Assembly: GCA_038063715.1 (NCBI GenBank)
Contig: JBBTUO010000007.1
Coordinates: 1,540-65,539, forward strand
Origin: Patescibacteria group bacterium
GTDB taxonomy: Bacteria > Patescibacteriota > Minisyncoccia > Phycocordibacterales > SIBU01
Length of the DNA stretch: 64,000 bases
Direction: 5' to 3'
Shown piece by piece: positions 6,964 to 42,903 of the stretch. Each line of letters starts with the position of its first letter. Positions within the stretch are counted from its first letter, which is position 1. A program made the position numbers and the translations under genes. The notes under the pieces are model-generated. The model ran no database searches and was not told the DNA's origin. It saw only the letters and a program-made list of their open reading frames with translations.

Positions 6964-7001
6964 ATACATAAATCTTACGCTATAGCGTATAATTTATGTA
7001 T
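6964..7001. repeat. Imperfect ~38-bp palindrome ACATAAATCTTACGCTA|TAGCGTATAATTTATGT, overlapping the start codon of the downstream gene
   Basis: Core TACGCTATAGCGTATAATTT is identical to the downstream copy at 7601-7620. The ATG at 7000 lies in the right arm. Confidence 0.8.
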
Positions 7002-7588: not shown

Positions 7589-7626
7589 ATACAGAAATTA
7601 TACGCTATAGCGTATAATTTCTGTAT
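7589..7626. repeat. Perfect 38-bp palindrome ATACAGAAATTATACGCTA|TAGCGTATAATTTCTGTAT
   Basis: Read directly. Third member of the TACGCTATAGCGTA family, 23 bp downstream of the wHTH-Cas2-like gene. Confidence 0.85.
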
Positions 7627-7687
7627 ATAATGTGTGGATGGATGCGGGCCTAAATTAAGCAGAACGCCTCCAATACAGTTTGAACTT

Positions 7688-17865: not shown

Positions 17866-17906
17866 TGTATACGTTTATAATACACGACCGTGTATTATAA
17901 ACGTAT
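17866..17906. repeat. Perfect inverted repeat TATACGTTTATAATACACG-ac-CGTGTATTATAAACGTATA (19-bp arms)
   Basis: Read directly. Lies between two convergent genes. Confidence 0.8.
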
Positions 17907-17931
17907 ACCGAAAAATAAAGCGGATTATGAA

Positions 17932-18231: not shown

Positions 18232-18354
18232 TTAATTAATATACATTACATCATATATAGCAAAACATACCTTGCTGCCTATAAACTTTAGTTCAGTAAA
18301 GTAACCAAGATTATATTTTTTCTGTTTAAATTTTGAAATGCATGTATAAAAAAC

Positions 18355-19413
18355 TTATTCCTTCTTTGATTTTTCTATGCGCTCCTTTCGCTTGTACCAG
18401 CCAGCTTGTAATTTAACCTTATTTTCGTTTGCATAGGCTTCTGCTTTTCTAAACATCTCAAGTGCTTCGCCATTGCGTCCTCCATCTGAAAGTTCCGCAA
18501 AATCCTGAAAAAGCATCTCGAGATAATTCATAAACTTTCTATCGCGGCGTGCTTCAAAACCACCCGGGTGATCTGTGCCCTTGCCTGAATAGACTGTGGC
18601 GCTTGGAAATGTCTCTCCTATCGAATATAGTGCGGTAATCACAGTACCACCTCTATCCATCATGTCATCTGCAACAATAACTGTCGTTGTCGTTCCACCG
18701 GATTCACCTGCCTCAGAAACAGCTTTCTGATTTTCCTTATCAACCGCAATAACAAACGAATCTACGGAAAAAGAATTGTCCCCGTATCTCTCAACAATTT
18801 TTTTGACCAACTCTACATAAACACTTCCTCCGCTCAAAATGCCTCCAACTTTTGTGCCTTTTTGAAAAAACTTGTTTACGGCATTTATAGTCAGATCATT
18901 CGTGCCCCGTAAAAACTCGTCGAGCACATAACGCATTTCCTCTTGTGTGAGCTTGTGATTAGGTGTCTCTACCGACTTAGCTTTTTCGGCAACCCGAGCA
19001 AGCATATCATCTGTGGCGCGCAAAAGATTTTGTATCGAAAATTGCGGAGGGAGACCGTGTCCAGAACCAGCATCCTGCTCAGAATACTGACTAGATAGAC
19101 GTTTTGTACCCTCTACAAAAGAGGGGTCGACCGGAGACGGGGTATCCTCCAAAGACTGGGCCATAATTACGTTGGCCATTTGGGTAGACAATAGATGAGC
19201 CTCCTTCAAAACATTTTGACAAACAGCATAATCCTGCTCCGTCAGCGCCTCAGTTCTCAGCTTTCTTAAAACTCTAATCCCTTCTTGTAATTTTCTTTCG
19301 TTTTCCAACTTTAATTCGCGCTCTGCCTCAGAAAGCGCTGGTCGTTCCATTTTTTTAAAGCTTGTATGGCTACCGCCAAGCAACGCTTCGAAACCTCCTG
19401 AATTAAAAGACAT
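18355..19413 (-). CDS. Protein with C-terminal type I phosphoribosyltransferase-like domain
   Basis: A PRTase-type PRPP-binding motif (TTVIVADDMMDRGGTVITAL) in the C-terminal third. The N-terminal ~230 aa is unrecognised. Confidence 0.45.
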   Translation of the reverse strand: MSFNSGGFEALLGGSHTSFKKMERPALSEAERELKLENERKLQEGIRVLRKLRTEALTEQDYAVCQNVLKEAHLLSTQMANVIMAQSLEDTPSPVDPSFVEGTKRLSSQYSEQDAGSGHGLPPQFSIQNLLRATDDMLARVAEKAKSVETPNHKLTQEEMRYVLDEFLRGTNDLTINAVNKFFQKGTKVGGILSGGSVYVELVKKIVERYGDNSFSVDSFVIAVDKENQKAVSEAGESGGTTTTVIVADDMMDRGGTVITALYSIGETFPSATVYSGKGTDHPGGFEARRDRKFMNYLEMLFQDFAELSDGGRNGEALEMFRKAEAYANENKVKLQAGWYKRKERIEKSKKE

Positions 19414-19478
19414 AAAATTATATGCTTATATTAACAATTAGCGCATTTATGAACAAGGTTTCGCAGGTTTAGCAAATT

Positions 19479-19496
19479 ACTTTAGTTAACTAAAGT
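19479..19496. repeat. Perfect palindrome ACTTTAGTTAACTAAAGT (copy 1 of 3)
   Basis: Read directly. Lies in the purD / PRT-domain gene intergenic region. Confidence 0.8.
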
Positions 19497-19506
19497 GGAA
19501 AAATTT

Positions 19507-20775
19507 CTATCGAATAGATTTTTTACCGATATCTTTTCGGTATTGCATTCCCAAAAAAGAAATTTTTTCTAAACTTTTGTAAGCTGAAGAAAGCGCCGAT
19601 TCCAGCGTAGTGCCAGTCGCAGTTACTCCTAAAACGCGTCCCCCCGCGGTAACAATTTTTTTGCCCAAAGCTTTCGTGCCTGCATGAAAAACCACAGTAT
19701 CGCTATTCTTTTCCGCATCTCGAATACCCGTGATTTCATCGCCCTTTCTAGTTTCTTCGGGGTAGTTTTCGGCGGCCGCAACAACGCAACAGGCATAGCC
19801 TGATTTCCATTGTATATTCGTTTTACTCAATTTTCCATCAATACAGGACTCAATAACATTGATAATATCGCTATCCAAAAGTCTCATAAATGATTGGGTT
19901 TCCGGATCGCCAAATCGGGCATTGAATTCAAGTACTCGTATTCCATCCCCTGTGACCATAATTCCTGGGAAAAGAACTCCTCGAAACTCTCGGCCTCCTT
20001 TTGCCAAACCGCGAATCGTCGGGATCACAACCTTGTCTTTTATTTCCACCATTAAAGATTCGGTTACCCAAGGCACTGGCACGATGGTGCCCATGCCACC
20101 CGTGTTTGGTCCTTGATCATTTTCATGAATACGTTTGTGATCCTGGGCCGGCGGAAACAAAATAATTGATTCGCCATCAGAAAAAGCGTGTATAGAAATT
20201 TCTTGACCGTCTAAAAATTCTTCGATAACAATCTCGTTTCCAGCATCACCGAAAATCTTTTCATTCATACATGAATCGAGAACCTCAAGCGCCTCTTTTT
20301 CATTCTGTACTATACTCACACCTTTGCCGAAAGCCAGACCGCTTGCCTTTATCACTAGCGGGAATTTTTGCGTCTGAATATATGACTTGGCTTTTTCATA
20401 TTTAGTAAATATCTGACACGCAGCGGTAGGAATCCCCTCTTCAGCCATAAATTGCTTAGCAAAGCTTTTTGACCATTCAATTTGAGACGCTCGTTTTGTG
20501 GGACCAAAAACTCTGATATTTTTCGATTGTAAATAATCGACTATACCGTCAGCCAGCAAATTGTCCGGACCAACAATCACTAGATCTATTTTTTGTTGTA
20601 CACAAAAATCGGCAACCGAAGCATGGTTGCCTAAGTCGAGATCAATATTTTCTACGCCTTGCGCTGTACCCGGATTACCTGGCGCGACAAAAAGTTTCTC
20701 GACCCTCGGAGATTGTTTACACTTCCACGCGAGTGCGTGTTCTCGTCCACCGCTTCCTAAGATGAGGATGTTCAT
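19507..20775 (-). CDS. purD: Phosphoribosylamine--glycine ligase
   Basis: MNILILGSGGREHALAWK... is the ATP-grasp PurD signature. The 422-aa length is canonical. Confidence 0.92.
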   Translation of the reverse strand: MNILILGSGGREHALAWKCKQSPRVEKLFVAPGNPGTAQGVENIDLDLGNHASVADFCVQQKIDLVIVGPDNLLADGIVDYLQSKNIRVFGPTKRASQIEWSKSFAKQFMAEEGIPTAACQIFTKYEKAKSYIQTQKFPLVIKASGLAFGKGVSIVQNEKEALEVLDSCMNEKIFGDAGNEIVIEEFLDGQEISIHAFSDGESIILFPPAQDHKRIHENDQGPNTGGMGTIVPVPWVTESLMVEIKDKVVIPTIRGLAKGGREFRGVLFPGIMVTGDGIRVLEFNARFGDPETQSFMRLLDSDIINVIESCIDGKLSKTNIQWKSGYACCVVAAAENYPEETRKGDEITGIRDAEKNSDTVVFHAGTKALGKKIVTAGGRVLGVTATGTTLESALSSAYKSLEKISFLGMQYRKDIGKKSIR

Positions 20776-20779
20776 GGGA

Positions 20780-21107
20780 TTTTGATCTACTGAAAGCGCC
20801 GGGAAGTTCGACCCTTACAGGGTCAGTACCCCGATTGGTTTTTCTGGCACGCTTCGCTTCCAGAAAAAGCTCAATCGGGCTTCGATTCCCGGACGACTGT
20901 GCTCCCAGCACATTCTCGCCCTCGCTTCACTTGCTTAAAGCATCGAGGAATCTGTCACAACTCTTCTGCTTCGCTAAAGCTCCGCCACGAAGGTCGCGAC
21001 CCCGCCTCGCCGTCGCAAAGCGACATGCTCCGGCCTTCGATTCCCGGACGCGAGCAAAGCAGTTTGCTCGCTCTCCCCTCACTTCACTACGCCTAGCTCC
21101 GTTTCGT
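20780..21107. repeat. Two diverged tandem repeat units (~150 nt each) containing tRNA T-arm-like TTCGATTCCCGGACG and internal hairpins, adjacent to tRNA-Pro
   Basis: GGGCTTCGATTCCCGGACG at ~20877 and GGCCTTCGATTCCCGGACG at ~21033. Each is followed by a hairpin (TGTGCTCCCAGCACA and GAGCAAAGCAGTTTGCTCG) and CTC-rich tails. Overlapping ORFs on both strands have non-protein-like composition. Confidence 0.5.
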
Positions 21108-21230: not shown

Positions 21231-21638
21231 CTATAAAATTAGATCTTCCAAAATTTTTAATCTTGCAATTTTGTTTTTCGAATCAAGCAAAACGGTAACA
21301 ACATCAAATTGCCACTCGGTCTCCTCCCCCACCCTTTTTTCTAATAAATAAACTTGTATGGCTCGCGAGAGGCGTTTCAGCTTCCAAGGATGGACATTGT
21401 CCTCAGGCCTAGAACTGTCCGCTGTTTCAGGTGTAACATTCAAAAGATCCTCGCGGGACACGGTTTTTACTTCAACAAAGTGGATCCTCCCAGCCTTTTT
21501 AACAATTACGTCTATTTCTCCAAATTTCCTTCTATAGTTCCTGTCGATGACATCATAGCCCTTATTCACAAGGAATTTAGAGGCTATTTCCTCTCCCAAA
21601 GCCCCTATTTTCTGCTTTTCAGTAGGCTCTCGTTTCAT
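21231..21638 (-). CDS. YraN-family (UPF0102) endonuclease
   Basis: ALGEEIASKFLVNKGYDVIDRNYRRKFGEIDVIVKKAGRIHFVEVKT is the classic UPF0102 pattern. Confidence 0.7.
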   Translation of the reverse strand: MKREPTEKQKIGALGEEIASKFLVNKGYDVIDRNYRRKFGEIDVIVKKAGRIHFVEVKTVSREDLLNVTPETADSSRPEDNVHPWKLKRLSRAIQVYLLEKRVGEETEWQFDVVTVLLDSKNKIARLKILEDLIL

Positions 21639-21893
21639 AAGAAACCTTAATTAATGTTTTCACGTGAAACATTCGCTGTTTTTTATGAATAAAAGCATGT
21701 CTTTTTTAAAATACCTATATTTTAAAGCGTTTAATGGTATTTTGATGTGAAAATTCTGCTAACTCTGCAAGTGTCCTTTATACACACATCCCCACAGTTA
21801 TCCCCAGTTTTACTGTTTTTTCCTTAAAATAAGCCGTTTTGGGTAGGGGATAAGAAGTGGGTAAATCGTGTCCTTTTAGAATTATTTGAATTG

Positions 21894-21964
21894 TGCGGGT
21901 GCCGGGAATCGAACCCGGGACTAAATCTTGGCAAGATCTCGTTTTACCACTAAACCACACCCGC
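21894..21964 (-). tRNA. tRNA-Gly (anticodon GCC)
   Basis: The reverse complement is GCGGGUGUGGUUUAGUGGUAAAACGAGAUCUUGCCAAGAUUUAGUCCCGGGUUCGAUUCCCGGCACCCGCA. Anticodon loop UUGCCAA. Confidence 0.85.
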
Positions 21965-21968
21965 AATT

Positions 21969-22634
21969 TTATTTTGAAACAGAAAGATCCTCGGAGGCCA
22001 GTTGCAACCATGCTAACATCTTTTCTTTAAAATATCTATTGTGGAAAGCGACATTACAAACTCCATAGCTTAATCGACGAACTGAACTCTTGCCTTTAAT
22101 TGTAATACTATTACGAAAATTACTTTCACCTAAAGTAATTTTTTCCTTCCAAAAATTCCTACAAACATCGTCTTTTAAATCCGGGTAAAGCAACAACCAC
22201 ACAGTAATTTTTTCAACTTCAATTTTGCAAATTTCTCTTAAAAACCTAATGAAAACCTTGATCATTAGGGGTTCGGTATTCGCAATACCACAGCGATATT
22301 TTGACCTCTTATCTCCTTCGCCCCAATAAATCATTAAACCGGCTATAAATAGGGGATTTGTGCGAAATTTTTTGTACTCATCTTTGGCTTCACGCCTTGC
22401 GTCATCATACGAATCAGTCAGCTTTTTCATCCTTGCCGTGTGCATAAGTTTTAATTTGTAAGAATTTTTTGTTGACGCTTTGGAAGCCAGCCGAGATTTT
22501 ATTTCACTCGACCAAGCCTCATTCTTAAACCAATCTGACAAAATCGCCATGGACATGCCCAATATTTTCCTGATCTCCTGATAACTCCTGCCTTGCTTCC
22601 TCAATTCAAATGCTTTTTGTTTATCGAATCGCAT
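21969..22634 (-). CDS. HTH + LAGLIDADG-like domain protein, paralog B
   Basis: N-terminal HTH (ELRKQGRSYQEIRKILGMSMAILSDWF). LAGLIDADG-like motif NPLFIAGLMIYWGEGDKR. The stop abuts tRNA-Gly on the same strand. Confidence 0.5.
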   Translation of the reverse strand: MRFDKQKAFELRKQGRSYQEIRKILGMSMAILSDWFKNEAWSSEIKSRLASKASTKNSYKLKLMHTARMKKLTDSYDDARREAKDEYKKFRTNPLFIAGLMIYWGEGDKRSKYRCGIANTEPLMIKVFIRFLREICKIEVEKITVWLLLYPDLKDDVCRNFWKEKITLGESNFRNSITIKGKSSVRRLSYGVCNVAFHNRYFKEKMLAWLQLASEDLSVSK

Positions 22635-22719
22635 AAACAGTATTATATAACATCTAATAGATAGTTCAATATCAATTATTTCGGATTTTGTGTATAATAA
22701 TTAAATTAACAAATAAACT

Positions 22720-22791
22720 GCGCCTATAGTGAAATGGATATCATACCTGCCTTCGAAGCAGATGTTCCAGGTTCGAATCCTGGTGGGCGCA
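22720..22791 (+). tRNA. tRNA-Arg (anticodon TCG)
   Basis: GCGCCUAUAGUGAAAUGGAUAUCAUACCUGCCUUCGAAGCAGAUGUUCCAGGUUCGAAUCCUGGUGGGCGCA. Anticodon loop CUUCGAA and T-loop GGUUCGAAUCC. Confidence 0.85.
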
Positions 22792-22798
22792 CAAAATT

Positions 22799-24295
22799 AT
22801 GAAGAAAAGTGAGCATTTCGATCTCCCCGAAGAAGTAGTGACGATTGCAAAAACCCTTAAAACGGCTAATTTTCAGGCCTATTTGATCGGAGGCTGTGTT
22901 CGAGACATTCTACTCGATCGTAAACCGAAAGATTGGGATTTCACAACAAATGCTACACCGGAAGAAATAATAAAGCTGTTTCCAAAAACTTTTTATGAAA
23001 ACGCCTATGGAACTGTCGGGGTTGTGAATGAAACTGCTACCGATGAAACACTTAAGGTTGTGGAGATAACTCCATACCGCCTAGAAGCAACCTACAAAGA
23101 TTTTCGTCGCCCAAGCGAAGTAAAGTGGAGCGATAAATTGGAAGACGATCTACAGCGGCGAGATTTTACAATTAACGCTATCGCGCTTGAGATCGGTGAA
23201 AAAGTAGGGGATTCGTATAAGAGACAATTGACTGACCTATATAAAGGACAAGAGGATTTGGCTCGTAAAACTGTAAAGACCGTGGGCGACCCTCATGACC
23301 GTTTCAGCGAGGACGCCCTGAGAATGCTCAGGGCGATCCGAATCGCCACCGAACTTGGTTTCACCATTGATACTGAAACGGCTTCAGCTATAGCTAAATA
23401 CGCTCATTTACTTAAGGAAATAGCCCAGGAACGCATTCGGGATGAGTTTGTAAGGATAATAATGTCTGACAACCCTATGGTTGGCGTTATTTTGTGTCAA
23501 AAGCTCGGTATTTTGCAATATGTTGCACATGAAACAGAGAAGGCCATCGGAATAGAGCAAAACCAGGCCCACGCTTTTGATGTTTGGGAGCACCTCCTAC
23601 GATCGCTCCAACACGCTGCTGACAAGAAATGGCCCCTAGAAATAAGGCTTGCAGCCCTGTTTCATGATATTTCCAAGCCTGAAACACGAAGATCGTCTCC
23701 GAAAACAAAGTGGACATTCTACGGCCACGAAGTGGTTGGTTCACGTGTAACCAAGAAAATTCTTGAAAGACTCAAGTTCCCATCAAAAACCATTGAGACG
23801 GTCACGAAACTGGTTCGCTGGCACATGTTTTTCTCTGATACGGAGCAAATCACACCATCTGCCGTGAGACGCCTAATTGCCAAGGTGGGTAAGGACAATG
23901 TCTGGGATCTGATGAATCTACGCATCTGTGACCGAATAGGCACTGGCAGACCTAAAGAAAACCCTTACCGACTACGCAAATATAAGGCAATGATTGAAGA
24001 GGTAATGAGGGATCCGGTATCAGTGGGGATGCTTAAAATTGATGGAAACAAGTTAACTGATGTTACACATGTAACACCTGGACCTAAAATAGGGCAAATA
24101 TTGAACGCTTTGCTTGAGGAGGTGCTTGAAAATCCGAAACTCAATACCGAGGAATACCTAGAGAATAGGGCGGTGGAACTATCAAAGGTTTCAGATGAAA
24201 CACTAAAAACGCTCGCTGATAAGGGAAAAGAGGCCAAAAATGAGCTCGAGGAGGAGAGTATTAAGGAAATTAGAGACAAATATAAGGTGGAGTAG
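22799..24295 (+). CDS. cca: CCA-adding tRNA nucleotidyltransferase / poly(A) polymerase family with HD domain
   Basis: N-terminal Pol-beta-like motif GGCVRDILLDRKPKDWDFTT. HD motif LFHDISKP. Lies directly downstream of tRNA-Arg. Confidence 0.85.
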   Translation: MKKSEHFDLPEEVVTIAKTLKTANFQAYLIGGCVRDILLDRKPKDWDFTTNATPEEIIKLFPKTFYENAYGTVGVVNETATDETLKVVEITPYRLEATYKDFRRPSEVKWSDKLEDDLQRRDFTINAIALEIGEKVGDSYKRQLTDLYKGQEDLARKTVKTVGDPHDRFSEDALRMLRAIRIATELGFTIDTETASAIAKYAHLLKEIAQERIRDEFVRIIMSDNPMVGVILCQKLGILQYVAHETEKAIGIEQNQAHAFDVWEHLLRSLQHAADKKWPLEIRLAALFHDISKPETRRSSPKTKWTFYGHEVVGSRVTKKILERLKFPSKTIETVTKLVRWHMFFSDTEQITPSAVRRLIAKVGKDNVWDLMNLRICDRIGTGRPKENPYRLRKYKAMIEEVMRDPVSVGMLKIDGNKLTDVTHVTPGPKIGQILNALLEEVLENPKLNTEEYLENRAVELSKVSDETLKTLADKGKEAKNELEEESIKEIRDKYKVE

Positions 24296-24826
24296 TAGCA
24301 AAATGTCGGGGAGGATTTCAATTTCGAGTACAGTTCGAGGCGGGAGTTCAATTTGTGACTAAGCTGTACAGTAGTACTGCGAAGGAGCAAATTGGGCTCC
24401 CAACGATGAAATGTGCCGAAATTGGAATCCGACAAAGAGAAAACCGCCTATGGGCGGTCTTTGTCGTTAGAACATGTTTACAAAATTCATCCGGTGATAA
24501 ATCCTGGGAACATGCTCTAAATTCAAATTGGCACAAAAGCGGTTTTAAGATAGGAGATCCTGTCTTGTTTACTTGATTTAGGTTTGAAAAATATAATCCG
24601 AAAGTGAGAAAAAATGAGAAAATATTTTCAAACGAAAAGCGAAACTGTCAGGGATCTCAAAATAGAGAGTAGATTCTCAAAGAACATTTATTGGGGAAGC
24701 ACATCTTCACACCAACGACTACTTCTCTATGAAATAGTATACACCCTATCAAGGACATGTAAAAGACATACCTGTGGATAACTCTATTTCTTTTTGTCCT
24801 TTATAAAAGACAGCCGTTTTGGGCCT

Positions 24827-25642
24827 CTATATAAGGCCATTGTCCGGTCGCGTTGAAATTTCTTTTTTAGTTTCTGAGTCTAATCTTTTCGCTTCCGCCC
24901 ACGCAAGCTCATAAATTTTTTTCATTGCGTCGGCAATTTCTTCGCTTTCAATAATAATCCCGAGCTTCTCTCGCCACGACGCGATCATCACTTTGTTATC
25001 GTAGATATTTATTTCTGGAGAAAAATAATATTTCTCCGATGACACAAGTGCGGTTTCTCGTTTCTCATCTTTGTCCTGTTTTTTTCGTTCTCGCCCAATA
25101 GTTGTTTCCGGAACAATTGCACGAATTGAGATATTTTTCTCCGCTCTCTGTTTGTAATACTTCGGGAAATAGTTGGGGAGTGCTTTATGCATGTCATCTA
25201 CATTTGCATAGGCCCGAATAGGCTCGGAGCTCGTCAAAGTATCTTCATATACGTATTCAAGACCATCTGTTCCCTCGTAAAATCGGATCTTTGGGCGATT
25301 TTCAAGAGAGTAGAGAACATTCAGCTCCGGCAATATTTTTTCTGACTGTTTAATAAAGCCTTCGGTCTGTGAAATTTGCCGTTTCAAATATTCTGTAACG
25401 GCCGTTGGTGGTTCAGGTGCATATTCCTGCTTTGGCTCCTTCCCAGACACGCTGGCCAACTTTTTACTAACTAAAGAGCCGAGAATATCGTAGCCGGTAG
25501 TGCGATTTATCCCTGCCTTGAGTGAAATCTTGGAAACCGTCGCCCTTCCAAGTTCGAGTAGGGCAATATAGACATCAACTTCTTTTTCGCTAAAACCAAA
25601 TGACTGAAGGTTGATTTTTAGTTGGGTGTATTTCTGTTCCAT
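24827..25642 (-). CDS. TrmB-family transcriptional regulator (paralog 3)
   Basis: N-terminal wHTH FGFSEKEVDVYIALLELGRATVSKISLKAGINRTTGYDILGSLVSKKL. The C-terminus (EEIADAMKKIYELAWAEAKRL) is shared with the remnant at 28093-28190. Confidence 0.7.
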   Translation of the reverse strand: MEQKYTQLKINLQSFGFSEKEVDVYIALLELGRATVSKISLKAGINRTTGYDILGSLVSKKLASVSGKEPKQEYAPEPPTAVTEYLKRQISQTEGFIKQSEKILPELNVLYSLENRPKIRFYEGTDGLEYVYEDTLTSSEPIRAYANVDDMHKALPNYFPKYYKQRAEKNISIRAIVPETTIGRERKKQDKDEKRETALVSSEKYYFSPEINIYDNKVMIASWREKLGIIIESEEIADAMKKIYELAWAEAKRLDSETKKEISTRPDNGLI

Positions 25643-25978
25643 GCGGTAAGCATATCAAAAATGCCTGATTGTGTCAATTATTTTCCACAAAAATACGCCT
25701 TATTGCCTAAATAGATTGATAAATATGGCTATTTCTATATTTAAAATGACGATTATATTTGACAATAAATAGAATATTGGGTATAGTTATGCAAGATAAG
25801 TTTCGGTAGCTCATTGAAATGCGCACTCAATAATTCATAGTGAAAGCACCGTTTCGATAGATGGAAGGTGGGTGTACTCTAGAGCCCACCACCCATCTAT
25901 CGAGTGAGGCAAAAAGCCGATTCTGCCAACGCAGGATTAGAAAAATCACAATTACGATGATTTTTCTTCATAGAATAG

Positions 25979-27232
25979 GTGCTCTCCGCTATGAAAAACA
26001 TCTTCCCGAACGTCCCCGCCTCCCTTCCAAGAAAAAGTGAATTGCCTCCGAACGGCACATGTCGCATGATCTGGAAGTGGAGCTACCCCGCCACAAGAAT
26101 GAGGGAAACGGTTGTAATCAAGGGAGAGGTTGTAAAAAAACTTCTTACCCTCGACCTCAACATTCCCGAATCCGGGTTTGCAACAAAAGTGAACAATGCA
26201 TCGCTCGCTGATGCAAAGAACATTTTTGTCGCAAACTACCCGTGCCCACACAAGTGTCCGGGCTGTTTCAACAACGCTGAGCTCCACAATCCAATCCTTA
26301 CCTTGGAAGAGATTTGGGGTATTGTGGACCAGGCGCTGGAACTCGGTCTCGAATCGGTAAAGTTTCTTGGGCCAGGCGAACTTCTCGCCAACCCTGAGAT
26401 CTTCACGGTTCTTGACGGGTTCCGCAGACGGAACATCGTGGTCGGCATCTTCACCAAGGGAGCAATAATGGGAAATGATGTGCTTGCATATCATTACCAT
26501 GGGATGAGTTCGGAAGAATTCACTCGCAAGCTCGTGTCATACCCGAATATGACATTCCTTGTTGGGGGCCGGTCATTCGACCCCCACTTCGAGAACCTCT
26601 TCATTCCGAGGAATGAAAGGCAGATCGATGTGAAGTTCGACTACCACGCTGCGCGCGGACTCGCTATTGAGCGACTTTGCAAATCTGGAATGAATGCTGA
26701 CCTTGAGAAACCTAGGCTGGCAATCATCTGTAGTCCAGTGACTTCCCAAAACATTGGTTGCGTGGGTGAGATATACAAATGGGGTGCCGAAAGGAACATC
26801 CCTGTGTATCTTCCACCAACGATGGTATCTGGGAAAGGCCATAAACTGGTGAAAAGTGCTTCGGACAAAAAATTCGAGGATGACTACATCAAATTGGCCG
26901 CCGATGTTTACACTTGGGCGATTGAGCGGGGAGTTATGACCCTCGAACAATTCGAACAAGAGGGGCCACATCCCTACATCGGAGTTGCACCCTGCAACCA
27001 GCTCACTCACGGCCTCTACGTTCACTACGACGGAGCGGTGTGGCGTTGCCCCGGTAACGACACACCCGACTTCGTGGTAAATGAGAACATCCGCAACACA
27101 CCTCTCGTTGAAATCTGGCGTGGTAGCAAAAACTACCGCATCAACAAATTCAACAACGGATGTGTGAAGGATGACATCTCGCTACCTCGCCGGTTTTATC
27201 GCGAGGTGAAGGACAAGGTTCAACGGCAGTAG
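25979..27232 (+). CDS. Radical SAM protein with Cys-rich C-terminal (SPASM/twitch-like) region
   Basis: Canonical CxxxCxxC (NYPCPHKCPGC). Six further Cys in the C-terminal half (CSPVTSQNIGC, APCNQ, WRCPGN, NGCVKDD). GC content is higher than flanking DNA. The start may be at 25991 (MKNIF). Confidence 0.7.
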   Translation: MLSAMKNIFPNVPASLPRKSELPPNGTCRMIWKWSYPATRMRETVVIKGEVVKKLLTLDLNIPESGFATKVNNASLADAKNIFVANYPCPHKCPGCFNNAELHNPILTLEEIWGIVDQALELGLESVKFLGPGELLANPEIFTVLDGFRRRNIVVGIFTKGAIMGNDVLAYHYHGMSSEEFTRKLVSYPNMTFLVGGRSFDPHFENLFIPRNERQIDVKFDYHAARGLAIERLCKSGMNADLEKPRLAIICSPVTSQNIGCVGEIYKWGAERNIPVYLPPTMVSGKGHKLVKSASDKKFEDDYIKLAADVYTWAIERGVMTLEQFEQEGPHPYIGVAPCNQLTHGLYVHYDGAVWRCPGNDTPDFVVNENIRNTPLVEIWRGSKNYRINKFNNGCVKDDISLPRRFYREVKDKVQRQ

Positions 27233-27270
27233 TTCTGCCACACGCTCTGGAGAATAGCGTCCAACTCCAA

Positions 27271-27300
27271 CCTCGCAAGCAATTGCGAGGTTTTTCTTTT
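27271..27300 (+). terminator. Rho-independent terminator after the radical SAM gene
   Basis: CCTCGCAA-gcaa-TTGCGAGG followed by TTTTTCTTTT. Confidence 0.7.
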
Positions 27301-27303
27301 GCC

Positions 27304-27388
27304 CAGTTTTGCCCGCGCTACTCCGTGGTCGCAACAACTGAGGCCGTCGCACATACCTCTTTATCCATGGTTCGACGCAACTTGATCA
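27304..27388 (+). repeat. ~85-bp double-hairpin repeat, copy A (diverged)
   Basis: TTTTGCCCGCGCTACTCCGTGGTCGCAACAACTGAGGCCGTCGCAC...CGACGCAACTTGA. Aligns with copies at 29215-29300, 29366-29410, 34950-35010 and 42725-42815 (reverse orientation). Confidence 0.7.
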
Positions 27389-27396
27389 GAACCATT

Positions 27397-27416
27397 TACT
27401 TTAGTTAACTAAAGTA
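27397..27416. repeat. Perfect palindrome TACTTTAGTTAACTAAAGTA (copy 2 of 3)
   Basis: Read directly. Confidence 0.8.
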
Positions 27417-27564
27417 TCCGTAAAGAAGTTTTATTCAACATTAAAAACTAAAAGTATTCTTGTTACGAACTTGATAATTTTTTTAAAAAATTAATTTTCA
27501 AAATCAAAATAGAAAAAGAAGAGCCCGTCGCTTGTGTGCGACGGGCTTTGTGAAAGTTCACGGA

Positions 27565-28017
27565 TCAACTTGCCGGAGGGGAGACCGGAACAACGAGCGG
27601 AACCGGGAGACAAGCGCCCAGGAAATTGTCACTGGGATTAAGCAGGCGGCGAAGAACGAAACCGTGAGAGATAATTGCGCCATCGGCACAGGGCACTGTG
27701 CCCGCCTGGCCATTGGGACACAAACTTTCGATGATATCCATGGCGCCACCCTCGTTCAGCGCCTTGGCCGAGGCTAACCAAACTACACCGTTGGTGGTGA
27801 CCACGACCAAAAGGCCAGCGTCTACGTTCCAGCAGCCGAGGGCGCTGGAAGAGATTTGGCCACCATCGGTAAGGCGAGCGCCAGCCATTTTCATGACGGG
27901 CAAGCCGGTGACGTTGACAAAACCGAGAGGTGCCAAAAGGTCCTCTCCTAACAAGGTGCTGTGTGTGCTCATAAGTGCGTGGGGGGGGGTAACAGGTTTA
28001 TCTGATTGTCCGAGCAA
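27565..28017 (-). CDS. Hypothetical Gly/Ala/Val-rich protein with several Cys, in a GC-rich insert (coding strand uncertain)
   Basis: 150-aa ORF, probably starting at the internal MSTHS. Convergent with the radical SAM gene. A competing 113-aa ORF on the plus strand (27698..28039). Composition is unlike the surrounding genome. Confidence 0.3.
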   Translation of the reverse strand: MLGQSDKPVTPPHALMSTHSTLLGEDLLAPLGFVNVTGLPVMKMAGARLTDGGQISSSALGCWNVDAGLLVVVTTNGVVWLASAKALNEGGAMDIIESLCPNGQAGTVPCADGAIISHGFVLRRLLNPSDNFLGACLPVPLVVPVSPPAS

Positions 28018-28092
28018 TTCGAACTATTTTCGAGTCTAACATATTTTAAACTCACTGTCAAGTAAAACTATGGAATAGGGCTTTCCTAGATA

Positions 28093-28190
28093 GAATTTAT
28101 CTTGAGCCCTTGTCCAACCTTTTCGCCTCCGTCCACGCCAATTCGTAAATTTTTTTCATCGCGTCAGCGATCCACTAGCTCTCAATTTGG
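28093..28190 (-). pseudogene. 3' remnant of a TrmB-family regulator gene
   Basis: The minus strand encodes ...IADAMKKIYELAWTEAKRLDKGSR*, preceded by an in-frame stop. It is nearly identical at the DNA level to the 3' end of the gene at 24827-25642 (TTTTCGCCTCCGTCCACGCCAATTCGTAAATTTTTTTCATCGCGTC). Confidence 0.55.
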
Positions 28191-28257
28191 AAAAATGTCG
28201 CAATCTATTGGAAATTTTGTAGCGTGTCATTCCACACACATTTGATATACTTTTTTA

Positions 28258-29130
28258 ATGAATACAAAAAACTATTTCGTAGCTCCGACAATTGCATTGC
28301 TTATATCCCTCTCTTTCTGGTTCACCGCCAATACCGCCAACGCCACCGTCGGTGGACCAACTTTCGTCCACTCTTTTTCCTACAATCCTGCCGATGAATC
28401 TGTGTACTACATTATGAACTCGCAGAACGGACGGGGTTGCCCACCCGAATTACTCAAACTCTCTTTGGCTTCAAATACTTCTCAAGTAGTGTACTCGTGC
28501 GACGAGGGCGAGAGTTTGATCCAAAACACCAACTACGATTTTGCACCCGTGAACGCCAAAATCAGCGACATCACGGAGGGATACAAACGTCTCATCCCAA
28601 TACATTTAAAAAATAATAATATTTCTGTCAGCGTTGATTTCCATGGGCTCGAGAATATTTCTCCGGAGGTCAGCGAGATAAAGAATGCGAAGTTTACCGT
28701 AAATATCTCTCAAGACAACAAAAAGCTCGCACCCATCCCCATCGTAGGCTGTAACAACGACCAACCCTTCACCCTTGCCGGCTATGCCATACCTGGATTT
28801 GAGAAAAAAATAATTATCCTCCTATCTACAAAAGGTGATTGCTGGGAAGGTGGCTATATTCGCGAAAGTCTCCATGTTGTCGGAGGAATAAGCGACTTGG
28901 ATAAAAATTACACCACCAACTACTACAAAGAAGCGTCCGCGCTGGTACCGAACGAAGGCACCTTAGTGGTCTCAGCCTCGGATGAATCTTCACCAAATCC
29001 TATTGCAACGAACACTCATGATACAGAGACGCCTCGTGAAAACGCCTCCGGTAACAGTATTTTATTTACTCTTGCGATTATTGTCTCTTTGATAATTGGC
29101 GGTGTGATCGGAAAGCGATACCTAAAATAA
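28258..29130 (+). CDS. Hypothetical secreted protein with N-terminal signal peptide and C-terminal TM anchor
   Basis: 290 aa. Hydrophobic N-terminus (VAPTIALLISLSFWFTANTANA). C-terminal ILFTLAIIVSLIIGGVIGKRYLK. Asn/Ser-rich. Confidence 0.5.
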   Translation: MNTKNYFVAPTIALLISLSFWFTANTANATVGGPTFVHSFSYNPADESVYYIMNSQNGRGCPPELLKLSLASNTSQVVYSCDEGESLIQNTNYDFAPVNAKISDITEGYKRLIPIHLKNNNISVSVDFHGLENISPEVSEIKNAKFTVNISQDNKKLAPIPIVGCNNDQPFTLAGYAIPGFEKKIIILLSTKGDCWEGGYIRESLHVVGGISDLDKNYTTNYYKEASALVPNEGTLVVSASDESSPNPIATNTHDTETPRENASGNSILFTLAIIVSLIIGGVIGKRYLK

Positions 29131-29152
29131 ATTTCACTGGTATTTTAACCCA

Positions 29153-29182
29153 CCAGCTACTTTAGTTAACTAAAGTAGCTGG
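29153..29182. repeat. Perfect 30-bp palindrome CCAGCTACTTTAGTTAACTAAAGTAGCTGG (copy 3 of 3)
   Basis: Read directly. Begins 23 bp after the stop of the upstream gene. Confidence 0.85.
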
Positions 29183-29214
29183 GGAATGAGTTTGTATTTA
29201 TTTTTTCCCGACTT

Positions 29215-29300
29215 TCCCAATTTTGCCCACGGTACTCCGTGGTTGCAACAATTGCGGACGTCGCACCCCTCTGTTTCCGCAGCGCGACGCAAACTTGAGA
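29215..29300 (+). repeat. ~85-bp double-hairpin repeat, copy B (best-preserved)
   Basis: CCCAATTTTGCCCACGGTACTCCGTGGTTGCAACAATTGCGGACGTCGCACCCCTCTGTTTCCGCAGCGCGACGCAAACTTGAGAG. Hairpin 1 is CCACGG-tact-CCGTGG. Hairpin 2 is GACGTCGC...GCGCGACG. Confidence 0.8.
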
Positions 29301-29365
29301 GAGCCCTGAGCAACTTAGGAAACAAGAAGCACCCCTTCGAGTATCACGAAGCGTGTACCCTTGTG

Positions 29366-29410
29366 GTGCAATTTTGCCCACGGTACCCCGTGGTTGCCAC
29401 AATTGATCCC
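29366..29410 (+). repeat. Partial copy (hairpin-1 half) of the ~85-bp repeat, copy B'
   Basis: GCAATTTTGCCCACGGTACCCCGTGGTTGCCACAATTGATCCC. Confidence 0.7.
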
Positions 29411-29530
29411 AGTTTTGTTTGCGAGCTTTGCCGTCATGCGACGACAGCTCGCCGATAGGAATCGGGCGGTTGTGAGTATCTACAAAACCTGAGGAGGCGA
29501 GTAATCTCGACGTGAACTAATTCGCACTAA

Positions 29531-30325
29531 CTACTTAATGTCTATTAGGACGGGGCAATGATCCGAACCCATGACTTCGGGGAGGATTTCAGCGGATTTG
29601 AGGCGGGGAAGGAGAGCGGGAGAAATCAGGACGTAGTCGATACGCCAGCCAACGTTGCGAGCGCGGGCGTTGGCAAAATGCGACCACCAGGTGTAGTGGC
29701 CATTGCCTTTTTTGAATTGACGAAAGGTGTCGATAAATCCGGCGTCAATAAATGCCTGAAAACCGGCCCGTTCTTCTTTGGTAAACCCCTTCAAACCTTC
29801 GTTTTCCTTTGGCCGAGCCAAATCATCCGGCGTGTGAGCGACATTTAAGTCGCCGCAGAAAATGACAGGCTTTTTCTTTTCCAAAAATTTACAATAGGCC
29901 AAAAATACCGGGTCCCATTGCTTGTGGCGAAGGGGGATTCGGCTTAAATCATCTTTCGCGTTCGGAGTATAAACCGTAACAACATAAAAATCTTTATACT
30001 CGGCGGCGATCACTCGGCCTTCGGTCAGTGGATCACCGTATTTGTCCGCGCCAAGTTTACATTTTTTGATAATCGCCTCAGGAAAACCATTTATAACTGA
30101 AAGCGGTTTTTCTTTGGTAAAAATCGCCGTTCCGGAATAACCTTTTTTCTCGGCGGAGTTCCAGTATTCAGTATATTCGGCCAAATCCACCTCCGACTGG
30201 TGCTCCTGCGCCTTTGTTTCCTGCAAACACAAAATATCCGGCTGATATTTTTCGATAAACGGCACAAAAAGCCCTTTTTTGTGCACCGCGCGAATGCCGT
30301 TGACGTTCCATGAGATGAGTTTCAT
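29531..30325 (-). CDS. xth: Exodeoxyribonuclease III (AP endonuclease, Xth family)
   Basis: MKLISWNVNGIRA...LCLQETK...DLNVAHT...WWSHFANARARNVGWRIDYVL...GSDHCPV are the EEP-family catalytic motifs. Confidence 0.9.
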   Translation of the reverse strand: MKLISWNVNGIRAVHKKGLFVPFIEKYQPDILCLQETKAQEHQSEVDLAEYTEYWNSAEKKGYSGTAIFTKEKPLSVINGFPEAIIKKCKLGADKYGDPLTEGRVIAAEYKDFYVVTVYTPNAKDDLSRIPLRHKQWDPVFLAYCKFLEKKKPVIFCGDLNVAHTPDDLARPKENEGLKGFTKEERAGFQAFIDAGFIDTFRQFKKGNGHYTWWSHFANARARNVGWRIDYVLISPALLPRLKSAEILPEVMGSDHCPVLIDIK

Positions 30326-30428: not shown

Positions 30429-30731
30429 TTAGTGATCCGCGTAAGACGGCTGCGGCCGGCGCAATCTCTTAACGGGTTTCCAAGACTGACGCGAAACACA
30501 AAAACCAGCGCTCTTAATCAACTCCTCGATCAAGGGCCCATCCGTCTGGTGCCTGTAAAGCACAGTGAACGCGCCCGTCGAAGACACTTCGAAATCGCCA
30601 CCGGAAAACCGCTTTACCGAACCCGAAACGTGACCCAGAGCTACATCGAGAAGCTTGATATCTGGCGTGGCAGGTGGATTAAGGATGTCGCGATCGGTTG
30701 CCTTTCTGGGAAGAACCTGAAACTCGTTCAT
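30429..30731 (-). CDS. Hypothetical small protein (GC-rich segment; strand choice uncertain)
   Basis: 100-aa ORF, followed on the minus strand by a hairpin plus T-run terminator (plus coordinates ~30380-30410). A competing plus-strand ORF sits at 30432..30758. Confidence 0.25.
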   Translation of the reverse strand: MNEFQVLPRKATDRDILNPPATPDIKLLDVALGHVSGSVKRFSGGDFEVSSTGAFTVLYRHQTDGPLIEELIKSAGFCVSRQSWKPVKRLRRPQPSYADH

Positions 30732-31461: not shown

Positions 31462-32217
31462 TCAGACCGTCGCGAGCGGCACAGTCTCGGCTGGAACCGA
31501 CGCTTGTGGCACTTCTTGTGGGTGATCTTTGACATACTTCATGTTCGCTCGGTCGAAATACGGATTCCAGACCCCCTCATGCACCTGAAGTTTCTCGCAG
31601 AGATTGATGATCGAGCGAAAGCGATCATCCAACTCGTCGATTCCCGACTTGTCATCGGGACAATCGCGCTGTTTGCAAACCAGCAGGAAGGTATTGAAGT
31701 CCAGAAACTTCCTGCAGGCGTCGCAAAACTGCTCATCGGTGACCCTGGCGATCATGAAGATGCCGTCGGGCAAGGTCGAGATGTCCACCCCTGGAAACAG
31801 GAGTCTCTTGAAGAATACGCTGTTCTTAATCAGCAAGGCGTCGAGCTCTTGCAGAGTTTTGACGAACGGCTGGGTGCTGGTCTCGTAACCGTAGATAGCG
31901 GCAAGAGCCACGGCGCTCAAACCCAAACCCACGACGATGCCCGTCCAGACAGAGGAGAAACCAATGCTCGCCAGCAGGAAAAAAAGAGCGAGCAGGGACA
32001 ACACGAGCATCAACAGCGCCTGCTGTGATCTATAGTAGTCTGACCGCAGATATTCGGCTGGGTCCCACACGGCACCGTTATACTGCGATCGCCAACCCCT
32101 CATCAAGATAGAGTTTGGGAGGAGGCAGTTGATGATGATTGCTCTCAAATGAACCTCCGAGAGGAAGTTCCTGGTTTGAACGAGTTGCATATACTGTCGA
32201 TGTGCTTTCTCCGTCAA
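31462..32217 (-). CDS. Hypothetical membrane protein (GC-rich gene)
   Basis: 251 aa with several hydrophobic segments (LLMLVLSLLALFFLLASIGF, WTGIVVGLGLSAVALAAIYGY). About 50% or more GC against an AT-rich background. Confidence 0.45.
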   Translation of the reverse strand: MTEKAHRQYMQLVQTRNFLSEVHLRAIIINCLLPNSILMRGWRSQYNGAVWDPAEYLRSDYYRSQQALLMLVLSLLALFFLLASIGFSSVWTGIVVGLGLSAVALAAIYGYETSTQPFVKTLQELDALLIKNSVFFKRLLFPGVDISTLPDGIFMIARVTDEQFCDACRKFLDFNTFLLVCKQRDCPDDKSGIDELDDRFRSIINLCEKLQVHEGVWNPYFDRANMKYVKDHPQEVPQASVPAETVPLATV

Positions 32218-34341: not shown

Positions 34342-34890
34342 ATGATCCTGCCTTTTCAGGAACCCGCCACTACAGACAACACCGCCATGAGCACACAAAC
34401 CGCCGCAAAAACAGCCTCCCAGACCAAAAACCAGACGAAAGCCGCGCTCCTCGAGCAGATCGCGAGGCTGACCGCCGACCTCGGGACCGCGCAGAAAACC
34501 GTCACGGACACCAACACGCGGGTCCGCGAACTCGAGGCCTCGAATCGGGAACAGTATGCCGAGAATCGCCGGCTGACGGATGATCTCAAGCTCCAGACCA
34601 AAAAGTTCGAGGATCAGGCGAAACGCCACGCTGCCTGTCACGAACGGACGGCCATTCAACTCGCCGCGGGCCGCGCCGAGCAAGAGGGCGCCGCGAACGC
34701 GTTCAGTCGCTCGCTCGAAGTCGTCATCGCGAACCTGGGCAAGAAGGCGTCGTCGCCCAAGAGTAGCCTGTTCGGCGAGATGCCGGCGGGACTCGCACTC
34801 CTGATGAGCATGGCGGAAAGCGGCCCTTCGGCTGAAGACGCCTTCGCCGACCTGCGCCGGCATCTCGAGACCGCCGGTGGCGGCCACTAA
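34342..34890 (+). CDS. Hypothetical coiled-coil protein (GC-rich gene)
   Basis: 182-aa ORF with K/E/Q/A-rich heptad-like composition. Followed by a strong terminator. The antisense ORF 34270..34887 has R-rich nonsense composition and is rejected. The start may be the internal Met at ~34387. Confidence 0.4.
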   Translation: MILPFQEPATTDNTAMSTQTAAKTASQTKNQTKAALLEQIARLTADLGTAQKTVTDTNTRVRELEASNREQYAENRRLTDDLKLQTKKFEDQAKRHAACHERTAIQLAAGRAEQEGAANAFSRSLEVVIANLGKKASSPKSSLFGEMPAGLALLMSMAESGPSAEDAFADLRRHLETAGGGH

Positions 34891-34916
34891 GCCGACGACA
34901 ACCTACAAACCTCACA

Positions 34917-34950
34917 GCCGCTCGACGCACGTCGAGCGGCTTTTTCTTCT
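34917..34950 (+). terminator. Rho-independent terminator
   Basis: GCCGCTCGACG-cac-GTCGAGCGGC followed by TTTTTCTTCT. Confidence 0.7.
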
Positions 34951-35010
34951 CAATTTTTCTCACGGTACCCCGTGACTGAAAAATTGAGGACATCGCGCTT
35001 ACCGACTTCA
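34950..35010 (+). repeat. ~85-bp double-hairpin repeat, copy C (diverged)
   Basis: CAATTTTTCTCACGGTACCCCGTGACTGAAAAATTGAGGACATCGCGC...GCGATGCAAACT. Confidence 0.6.
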
Positions 35011-35115
35011 TACCTGGTGCGATGCAAACTAATTAGCTTTTAATCCTTTTAATTTTGTCGAAAGAAAAATGCCAGTTCCGGATTGCTCCGCGCTGGCATT
35101 TGAGAAGGAAATAGG

Positions 35116-39639: not shown

Positions 39640-39725
39640 TAATTTCTAAATTATAATTTCTAATTTCTAAAAACCCTAGGATCATTTGGAAATTTCATTA
39701 GATATTAGGACTTAGAAAGTAGAAA
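39640..39725. repeat. AT-rich intergenic element with inverted termini (AATTTCTAAATTATAATTTCTAATTTCTAAA ... TTAGAAAGTAGAAATTTAT)
   Basis: The left 30 nt is identical to the copy at 41072-41105. Right halves are similar. Related copies at ~4335-4420, ~46370-46410, ~57215-57300 and ~9140-9180. Confidence 0.7.
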
Positions 39726-41069: not shown

Positions 41070-41155
41070 CTTTATTAATTTCTAAATTATAATTTCTAAT
41101 TTCTAAACCGGAGTCAAATTCGAATTTTATTAGACATTAGTAATTAGAAATTTAT
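41070..41155. repeat. AT-rich intergenic element, copy near-identical to 39640-39725
   Basis: ATTAATTTCTAAATTATAATTTCTAATTTCTAAA...TATTAGACATTAGTAATTAGAAATTTAT. Confidence 0.7.
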
Positions 41156-42724: not shown

Positions 42725-42815
42725 CAAAATGGGTTTACGTCGCGCTGCGGCAACAGAGGAGGCGCGACGTCCTCAATTGTTGCAACCGCGGAGTACCGTG
42801 GGCAAAATTGGGAAC
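42725..42815 (-). repeat. ~85-bp double-hairpin repeat, copy D (reverse orientation)
   Basis: The reverse complement is GTTCCCAATTTTGCCCACGGTACTCCGCGGTTGCAACAATTGAGGACGTCGCGCCTCCTCTGTTGCCGCAGCGCGACGTAAACCC, about 90% identical to copy B. Confidence 0.8.
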
Positions 42816-42903
42816 AAAAACCGCCCGGCTTTCGGGGGTTTTATTCTTAAATCCTAAATCTAAAATCTTGAATCCGAATCCGTTTTAGTACACCCTTGGC
42901 GTA

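Follow-up and report, generated by a model that had tools for sequence, protein, structure and literature searches.

A mosaic genomic island with two families of small dispersed repeats in a hypervariable slot of a Patescibacteria genome

The small genomes of Patescibacteria (candidate phyla radiation, CPR) are poorly known with regard to gene gain and loss and to their non-coding repertoire. Among the described systems that come closest to the locus treated here, the repetitive extragenic palindromic sequences (REPs) and bacterial interspersed mosaic elements (BIMEs) of proteobacteria, which go along with RAYT transposases, are based on single hairpins of about 35-40 nt that are present in hundreds of copies and are often arranged as inverted pairs (REPINs). 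Miniature inverted-repeat transposable elements (MITEs) and the palindrome-associated transposable elements (PATEs) derived from IS200/IS605 are small, non-coding and dispersed, class C group II introns are found directly behind terminators, and in integrons and in the pdif modules of Acinetobacter the acquired genes are each followed by the same palindromic site. Archaeal TrmB-family operators are again palindromes, built on TACT/AGTA half-sites and characterised as TACT-N3-AGTA and TACT-N7-8-GAGTA (PMC4158304). The present text deals with a stretch of 64,000 nt (the window; contig JBBTUO010000007.1 of assembly GCA_038063715.1, 44% GC) from a Patescibacteria genome of Paceibacteria/Taylorbacteria-like affiliation, in which an 85-bp repeat and an 18-bp palindrome enclose a segment of about 1.8 kb in mirror-image order. 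An earlier note on this DNA had regarded the enclosed segment as the inserted unit and the repeat as its two-copy boundary. On balance, the segment is better explained as the right part of a strain-specific mosaic insertion of ~4.7 kb in a hypervariable slot, with two independent dispersed repeat families whose members are not the ends of the island.

The window is matched by contig CAYHIP010000002.1 of the metagenome-assembled genome GCA_964356825.1, several assemblies from the Hainich groundwater well H41 carry pieces identical to it, and the arrangement is the same in all Hainich contigs. Contig L002 (xth 88% identical) was considered as a second strain and rejected, as it represents a divergent contig end of 119 nt. 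Related loci were retrieved via the radical SAM protein and via the CCA-adding enzyme (L003-L008, L016-L022 and further L-numbers) and are labelled Taylorbacteria, Nomurabacteria, Paceibacterota or Patescibacteria; L011 is a separate Hainich contig from the same aquifer as the window, and L025 extends past the window end. The backbone consists, in its left part, of the genes for a trypsin-like protease (+) and RNHCP (-), tRNA-Pro (-), UPF0102 (-), tRNA-Gly, tRNA-Arg and cca (+), followed by a non-coding block of ~375 nt, the variable slot, xth (-), a pilin-like gene of 105 aa (+), an xerC-like gene (-), and the genes for S15, NYN and PNPase.

Comparison with related genomes, as the earlier note had proposed it, gives a clear result for this slot. 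In the closest relative L021 (CCA-adding enzyme 84% identical) as well as in L022 and L006 the slot is empty, with cca and xth adjacent, whereas other cargo is present in L016-L020, namely a gene for a PEP-utilising enzyme in L016/L017, an MmeI-type restriction-modification gene together with two others in L018/L019, and a TrmB paralogue (30% identical to TrmB1 of the window) with an ORF of 96 aa in L020. In the window, the slot contains the TrmB-family regulator gene TrmB1, a radical SAM gene (rSAM), repeat A, a palindrome, a GC-rich ORF (GC-ORF), the remnant of a TrmB gene, the gene of a 290-aa protein, a second palindrome, and repeats B and C. Nucleotide homology to the relatives stops at ~24811 and restarts at ~29518-29550, and the inserted block therefore comprises ~4.7 kb (~24812-29530) and not 1.8 kb. 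It includes the TrmB1/rSAM pair to the left of repeat A. The region of 24.81-29.53 kb is thus a genomic island in a hypervariable slot, with conserved cca and xth flanks and with absent or different cargo in the relatives. Its first backbone neighbour on the right is the exonuclease III gene xth (29531-30325, minus strand; assigned by Pfam Exo_endo_phos and synteny), and at its left edge both repeat and palindrome are absent. The composition of the island is mosaic and atypical, with a high GC content at third codon positions (GC3) of 0.59 in rSAM and 0.63 in the GC-ORF versus 0.37-0.45 in the backbone, a truncated TrmB gene, and a relocated TrmB/rSAM pair. The earlier idea of an insertion or rearrangement scar thus holds insofar as the segment is missing at the orthologous place in relatives and a TrmB gene is truncated, but the pairs of repeat and palindrome are not the limits of the insertion; the larger inserted region had been overlooked, as had repeats C-G and a palindrome at 18285. 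All elements that the note had listed were recovered at the coordinates given there, and chance accounts for none of them.

Repeats A and B, which had been recognised before, are indeed present (27299-27385 and 29213-29297) and are 78% identical over 88 nt, but they belong to a dispersed, terminator-linked family of seven copies that is not tied to island ends. Copies C, D and E were found by BLAST and pattern searches of the window, copy F by a metagenome scan with the repeat core, and copy G lies in a different species (CCA-adding enzyme 81% identical). A covariance model built from the copies found before G (R1) gives 73-98 bits for the seven copies and no more than 21 bits for the next best match in ~320 kb of related DNA. 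Copy A (plus strand, 93.9 bits) has its core at 27299-27385 and a predicted tail to 27396, and copy B (plus strand, 97.9 bits, 93% identical to copy D) has its core at 29213-29297 and a predicted tail to ~29320. It is followed in tandem by the chimeric copy C (29364-29472, family match 29364-29451, plus strand, 72.8 bits), in which 29364-29408 represents hairpin 1 of the family and the 3' part is a different element of 45 nt (29428-29472, GCCGTCATGCGACGACAGCTCGCCGATAGGAATCGGGCGG) that recurs with 93% identity at L025:14082-14126 in the rpmH-rnpA spacer. Copy D (42730-42815, minus strand) lies between convergent ComM-like and M23 peptidase genes after a GC-rich hairpin (42824-42836) and a T-tract, and copy E (34946-35045, core to 35032, plus strand), the most divergent copy in the window, follows the terminator (34916-34941) of a GC-rich extra gene. 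Copies F and G are at L011:1921 and L016:11522-11608 (L016/L017; 84 bits).

The family has a conserved fold, a long interrupted hairpin (CCCAATTTTGCCCACGG-TACT-CCGTGGTTGCAACAATTG) followed by a second hairpin (CGTCGC...GCGACG). Over the seven copies, 92% of the cells are paired versus 30-49% with slid partners, and five pairs are changed on both sides; only 0-1 of 500 shuffles match the observed values, which with seven related sequences is supportive and not a proof, and most of the compensatory changes are contributed by the divergent copy E. A tail AGC(TTTT)AAYCCTT follows the element in E, F and G and is weaker in A, B and D, which suggests a full element length of 90-105 nt and an end of A at 27396, directly before the palindrome that starts at 27397. 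Six of the seven copies (A, B, D, E, F, G), at five separate places, start right after a GC-rich hairpin plus T-tract on the same strand, and at five out of five places the orientation is that of the upstream gene; in case of B, this hairpin is a copy of the palindrome (copy 3). On its left, the element is bordered by a T-tract in every case, and copies E, F and G have CTT both in this flank and at the end of the element. Several dispersed copies in one genome and a hairpin structure that is kept across copies are two traits that the element shares with REPs and MITEs. As to filled and empty sites, the rSAM flank of L020 is without the element, its downstream context being different, and at the cca flank the element is present in L016, whereas just CCCAATTTT is left of it in L021.

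Database searches gave little beyond this family. Rfam returned only four tRNAs at gathering score over the whole window and nothing credible at E <=10 over 27200-29560. With the repeat core as query, a viral DNA collection gave nothing, and a metagenome collection gave only Hainich H41 contigs, three of them identical to the window and one with the new place in L011, while a search for spurious ORFs spanning the repeat returned only the query itself. Three candidate identities of the repeat have been rejected: a tRNA or tmRNA fragment, domain V/VI of a group II intron (by inspection, as there is no catalytic triad and no 5' consensus), and attC, of which size and core are wrong. A third repeat family of ~78 nt occurs at 39640-39718, 41076-41150 and 57230-57300 (minus strand); its copies are ~80% identical, very AT-rich, contain internal inverted repeats, and all lie in short intergenic spacers.

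The palindrome is the second family. The sites at 19479, 27397-27416 and 29153-29182 had been noted correctly, and exact copies of the 18-mer ACTTTAGTTAACTAAAGT occur at 19479, 27398 and 29159. Together with a fourth site this makes four matches in the window, as compared to 0.02 expected from shuffles. Copy 1 (19479-19496) lies between purD and the PRT-domain gene, 10 nt past the stop codon of the former and 66 nt ahead of the latter, copy 2 (TACTTTAGTTAACTAAAGTA, 27397-27416) abuts the predicted end of repeat A, and copy 3 (CCAGCTACTTTAGTTAACTAAAGTAGCTGG, 29153-29182) is a perfect palindrome of 30 nt with a T-rich stretch after it. Copy 4 (18285-18302) has two mismatches and lies between the PRT-domain gene and the backbone gene RNHCP, just downstream of a promoter-like TTCAAA-16-TATAAT. 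Copies 1 and 4 follow the two genes of a second variable slot (18232-21107, between RNHCP and the 3' side of tRNA-Pro), which contains purD and the PRT-domain gene in the window, is empty in L016 and L022, and carries other genes in L018 and L020. All four palindromes are within or at the edge of non-backbone DNA rather than everywhere at ordinary intergenic sites, and they are found 10-70 nt past the stop codon or terminator of the island genes purD, PRT, rSAM and the 290-aa gene, if a later insertion of A is discounted. For the region of copy 3 (29146-29212), where a smaller hairpin in the T-rich stretch adds to the palindrome hairpin, RNA folding gives -26.1 kcal/mol (z = -5.8), and copy 3 probably serves as terminator of the 290-aa gene.

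Related sites are not restricted to intergenic DNA. A fifth variant (ATTTTAGTAAACTAAAAT, L025:13978-13995) with a mirror-symmetric double change is located ~4 kb past the window end, downstream of rpmH and overlapping the rnpA start. In relatives, the 18-mer ACTTTAGTCAACTAAAGT is found inside the coding DNA of two unrelated genes, where it is always read as FSQLK: in rsmE (L005:5686-5703 and L008:4945-4962) and in the linker of the trypsin-like protease (L020:5787-5804). The L005 and L020 sites have at most one mismatch, and the rsmE site of L008 has a mirror-symmetric double change that keeps the palindrome. As can be read from the sequence, the 18-mer of the window has stop codons in all six frames, and the coding version has CAA for TAA. 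Upstream of RNHCP, no such palindrome was found in four relatives. A scan of viral DNA gave one match in a phage contig of 134 kb, with a second site (two mismatches) 78 bp away, which was judged unrelated. The palindrome has also been considered as parS, which was rejected, there being a separate canonical parS-like cluster at 21.4-24.2 kb, as a DNA-uptake sequence, rejected since the half-site is hardly present outside the palindromes, and as dif, rejected with the locus being ~40 kb away from dnaA. Other AT-rich perfect palindromes in the window share the core ACGCTATAGCGT (4999-5034, 6964-7001, 7589-7628); they adjoin a TrmB paralogue and flank a PaaX-like gene on both sides, with one of them overlapping its likely start codon, and a further perfect palindrome of 42 nt is at 17867-17908.

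These observations can be combined in a stepwise assembly of the island. The TrmB1/radical SAM pair would have come from elsewhere, a second TrmB1-type gene would have been truncated to a remnant of 75 nt, and a GC-rich lineage-specific ORF and the gene of a secreted protein would have been added, each with its own promoter and terminator. The two-hairpin element may be a non-autonomous REP/MITE-like element, copied by an enzyme that is encoded elsewhere, recognises the hairpins of the element and targets T-tracts or terminators, and the element may additionally act as an RNA structure at 3' ends. The palindrome, then, would be a short element that spreads by duplication or travels with acquired gene blocks, and not a classical promoter operator. 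If the rSAM terminator and the 290-aa gene were at first each followed closely by a palindrome, an insertion of repeat A between the rSAM T-tract and its palindrome would have given the order repeat-palindrome, and an insertion of B after the palindrome plus T-tract of the 290-aa gene would have given palindrome, B and then C. The mirror-image bracket results in this scheme because A landed before the one palindrome and B after the other, so that it is mostly a by-product of the repeat positions and no special boundary function is needed.

Two of the four palindromes in the window sit between convergent genes, where no promoter is expected, which supports this explanation, and both repeat families clearly favour junctions in recently acquired DNA. 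Several points weigh against it. At two of the four palindrome sites, a repeat lies in the same intergenic region, for which our own hypergeometric estimate is about p = 0.02-0.07 under random placement among ~60 intergenic regions, and there may thus be some functional link between the two. For the two-hairpin repeat, no clean pair of filled and empty sites and no target duplication has been obtained, and as the cca flank of relatives contains short pieces like the 5' end of the element, some copies may be old and not mobile. Neither a transposase, RAYT/HUH or TnpA nor any recombinase besides the conserved backbone xerC is found among the proteins of the window and the 9 kb beyond it. The RNA hairpins of the palindrome core are weak (-4 to -7 kcal/mol) except in copy 3, and by these calculated energies the palindrome would fit better to a protein-binding site than to a structural element; moreover, the outer TACT...AGTA resembles half-sites of TrmB-family regulators, and TrmB paralogues are numerous here.

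An alternative for the two-hairpin element is that it is a functional RNA module, either a structured 3' extension that is made by terminator read-through or a small RNA, which stabilises or regulates the upstream transcript. The strict co-orientation with the upstream gene and the position directly at terminator T-tracts at five independent places would fit to this, as do the compensatory changes by which the divergent copy E maintains both hairpins and the conservation of hairpin 1 in another species (L016). An RNA module is nevertheless rather unlikely, as there is no match to an Rfam family, the opposite strand folds at least equally well, and the truncated or chimeric copies (F, C) and the tandem of B and C are what is seen in decaying repeats; in addition, the upstream genes are unrelated (rSAM, secreted protein, M23 peptidase, a hypothetical gene, a non-coding element), and the element is missing after orthologous genes in relatives.

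A similarly doubtful alternative for the palindrome is an operator of a dimeric transcription factor, most plausibly of the TrmB family, which would bind at the promoters of the PRT gene, RNHCP and rnpA and, at the two convergent sites, would obstruct transcription as a roadblock. Three TrmB paralogues and the remnant are encoded in the window, the 20-mer of copies 2 and 3 reads TACT-N12-AGTA, and all loci in which the motif is seen (window, L005, L008, L020) have a TrmB1-type gene as well. The promoter-like site just 5' of copy 4, the distance of ~66 nt from copy 1 to the PRT start codon, the overlap of the L025:13978 variant with the rnpA start, and the weak hairpin energies, which favour recognition of double-stranded DNA, would all suit an operator. 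However, the divergent TrmB1/rSAM promoter region has no site even at five mismatches, for two of the four window sites there is no gene downstream, the orthologous RNHCP promoters of four relatives lack the site, and the sites of relatives are inside coding regions. Three exactly identical 18-mers would also be unusual for a regulon, and the N12 spacing is unlike every characterised TrmB operator (PMC4158304). A duplicating hairpin element and a recombination site are jointly somewhat more likely than an operator.

Taken by itself, a role of the palindrome in site-specific recombination, with gene blocks being inserted into it, is improbable. A circular block with the GC-ORF, the TrmB remnant, the 290-aa gene and one palindrome would in this case have integrated into a palindrome between A and B, the PRT gene would have integrated likewise between purD and RNHCP, and each block would have been left flanked by palindromes. 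Indeed, both variable slots have the same layout (RNA gene, block X, palindrome, block Y, palindrome, backbone gene), a palindrome follows each of four island genes as in cassettes of ORF plus site, three copies are exactly identical, copy 3 has the 11-6-11 architecture of Xer/dif sites, and an xerC-like tyrosine recombinase is encoded at a distance of 4 kb. But this xerC-like gene belongs to the conserved backbone of every relative, including those with an empty slot, the proximal edges of both islands have no palindrome, and the flanks of the copies do not show a pattern of hybrid sites beyond a common ACCA; the truncated TrmB gene lies inside the block and not at a joint, and the 18-mer occurs within coding sequences of relatives. 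Still less can be expected of the far-reaching version that the palindrome serves an undescribed gene-cassette exchange system of Patescibacteria, in which units of ORF plus palindrome would be inserted successively at hotspots next to RNA genes (tRNA-Pro, the 375-nt element) by a housekeeping-type tyrosine recombinase, and open-frame site variants (CAA for TAA) would survive in coding regions of relatives.

The genes of the island agree with a mosaic origin as outlined for the stepwise assembly. The first one is TrmB1 (24827-25642, minus strand; Pfam TrmB, E = 1.3e-15), the divergent partner of rSAM (25991-27232, plus strand), which encodes a radical SAM/SPASM protein (Pfam Radical_SAM and SPASM) with only weak PqqE-like maturase matches in NCBIfam. 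The divergent pair is kept in L003-L008 and L020, though in other neighbourhoods: on the HU/RNase Y side in L006 and L020, on the NusA side in L004, L005 and L008, and between PNPase and another gene in L003, and the pair therefore has moved. The rSAM protein is 91% identical to that of L003, as compared to 71% for the TrmB partner and 28-78% for other shared proteins, and this identity hints at a recent transfer of the rSAM gene between lineages. An intrinsic terminator of rSAM, a hairpin with T-tract, was found by a terminator scan at 27269-27302 (plus strand). The 3' flank of rSAM (27234-27300) is 87% identical to that of L020, where the T-tract is the exact end of the homology and is not followed by a repeat. 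Directly 3' of the rSAM stop codon lies a hairpin motif (TCTGCCAAACGCTTTGGAGAATAGCGT, 27237-27262; also in L020, L004 and L003) that is better conserved than the protein, and the leader between TrmB1 and rSAM contains a near-perfect long hairpin (25855-25903, CGATAGATGG...CCCATCTATCG), which could be an attenuator or binding site.

The GC-rich ORF of unusual composition, as it had been described, is real: it encodes 135 aa (27565-27972, or to 28017 in a longer form; minus strand) with 58% GC and has a promoter-like site at 28061-28033 and an intrinsic terminator at 27522-27547 (minus strand; terminator scan). The product belongs to an uncharacterised protein family found in Patescibacteria, with 110 cluster representatives, and a word-indexed search with it returned only the query itself. 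Elsewhere, a homologue is surrounded by small, unrelated genes; its GC content is no more than 46%, that of its locus 43.5%, and because of this, the copy in the window fits a recent arrival from a GC-richer donor. Also the TrmB 3' fragment could be verified. It comprises 75 nt (~25 codons; 28112-28186, minus strand), encodes IADAMKKIYELAWTEAKRLD, and is 88% identical (tblastn, 25 residues) to aa 231-255 of TrmB1, with 19 of the 20 residues of IADAMKKIYELAWTEAKRLD (95%) matching the C-terminal helix of TrmB1. At the nucleotide level it is 82% identical to TrmB1, and as the differences are mostly synonymous, the remnant derives from a TrmB1-type gene that diverged under selection and is not a fresh duplicate; it is 95% identical to the C-terminus of the TrmB1-type protein of L020. 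The truncated TrmB gene is a true rearrangement scar. The 290-aa gene (28258-29130, plus strand), called as a gene in public assemblies, encodes a protein with an N-terminal signal or transmembrane segment and a C-terminal transmembrane segment; it has its own promoter-like site, with palindrome copy 3 and the T-rich stretch after it. The protein has no family match, and no homologue is found in the fetched loci of the relatives.

On the left, the slot borders on a conserved structured non-coding block 3' of cca (24431-24811, minus strand), which forms the backbone edge and is 69-74% identical at the nucleotide level across L016-L022 (six related species). Three hairpins of the block show compensatory changes, and an Rfam scan of 24280-24840 at E <=10 gave nothing credible. 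The block probably encodes a minus-strand RNA that would end in the terminator hairpin 24441-24456, the minus strand being chosen because of its T-tract, which in L016 is followed by a repeat copy. The block was rejected as an origin of replication. It contains one perfect DnaA box (24773), but a skew switch is missing, and dnaA is elsewhere. In fact, dnaA/dnaN are located ~2.6 kb past the window end, and the locus is therefore origin-proximal. The parS-like cluster consists of six sites at 21423-24202 in the UPF0102-cca region with <=3 mismatches to TGTTTCACGTGAAACA, where 0.46 would be expected; the corresponding region of L022 contains a perfect parS (L022:3958-3989), and parS-like sites were also noted at L018:9373 and L020:11403. 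To the right of xth, three extra genes (30429-30731, 31462-32217, 34342-34890; h100, h251, h182) are not part of the xth-xerC-S15 backbone of the relatives. Their GC3 is 0.58, 0.69 and 0.78, and the last one (h182) is followed by repeat E. Farther away, a type IV secretion-like gene set with PrgI, VirB4/TraC-like and TraG P-loop proteins is encoded at 56777-63061.

Hypervariable slots, gene remnants and REP/MITE-like repeats are already known kinds, whereas the particular families found here are undescribed, with no Rfam match. The outcome is therefore a corrected and enlarged description and not a new type of system. It comprises small gene-exchange hotspots, at least two in number, all of which have conserved flanks and adjoin an RNA-type gene, and a palindrome that is conserved across species in intergenic as well as coding DNA, and the strict relation of the repeat to terminator T-tracts could reveal a targeting mechanism. 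If the palindrome were a recombination site, a major uncultured lineage would prove to have a new way of acquiring cassettes, but such a cassette recombination is a minority possibility, and otherwise what has been obtained is a useful but ordinary list of the small repeats of a mosaic island.

In comparison with the known systems, the two families share with the REPs and BIMEs that they are short, imperfect palindromic, intergenic repeats at gene 3' ends or between convergent genes, sometimes clustered, with structure and sequence kept within the lineage. They differ from REPs by a two-hairpin unit of 90-105 nt and a separate perfect palindrome of 18-30 bp, by copy numbers of five and four per 64 kb, and by the Patescibacteria host, and no RAYT gene is seen in the window and the 9 kb beyond. 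MITEs and IS200/IS605-derived PATEs are similar in that they are small dispersed non-coding elements with hairpins near both ends and without terminal inverted repeats, positioned in an orientation-specific way by a target-like sequence, which would here be a T-tract ending in CTT. Unlike in these systems, no autonomous partner or TnpA was found in the same range, no defined cleavage or target tetranucleotide was obtained, and there is no clean empty site. Class C group II introns have the same position directly 3' of a terminator stem-loop and T-stretch, in sense orientation to the upstream gene, but the element is far too short and has no 5' GUGYG, no domain V-like catalytic triad and no reverse transcriptase ORF. 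TrmB operators, among them also the TGM with TATCAC-N5-GTGATA, have in common with the palindrome the TACT/AGTA outer half-sites and the nearby TrmB-family genes, and differ in that the spacing here is N12, the TrmB1 promoter has no site, and half of the sites are not at promoters. In case of integron cassettes and Acinetobacter pdif modules, the likeness lies in acquired genes that are each followed by the same palindromic site and in blocks flanked by two copies, and copy 3 is a perfect 11-6-11 palindrome like Xer sites; of each arm, the other copies retain just the inner 7-8 bp. However, neither intI or attI nor an array is seen, the site has 18-30 bp and not the 57-141 bp of attC, and the palindrome centre GTTAACT fails the R' core GTTRRRY at position 6; and whereas pdif modules belong to plasmids, the setting here is chromosomal.

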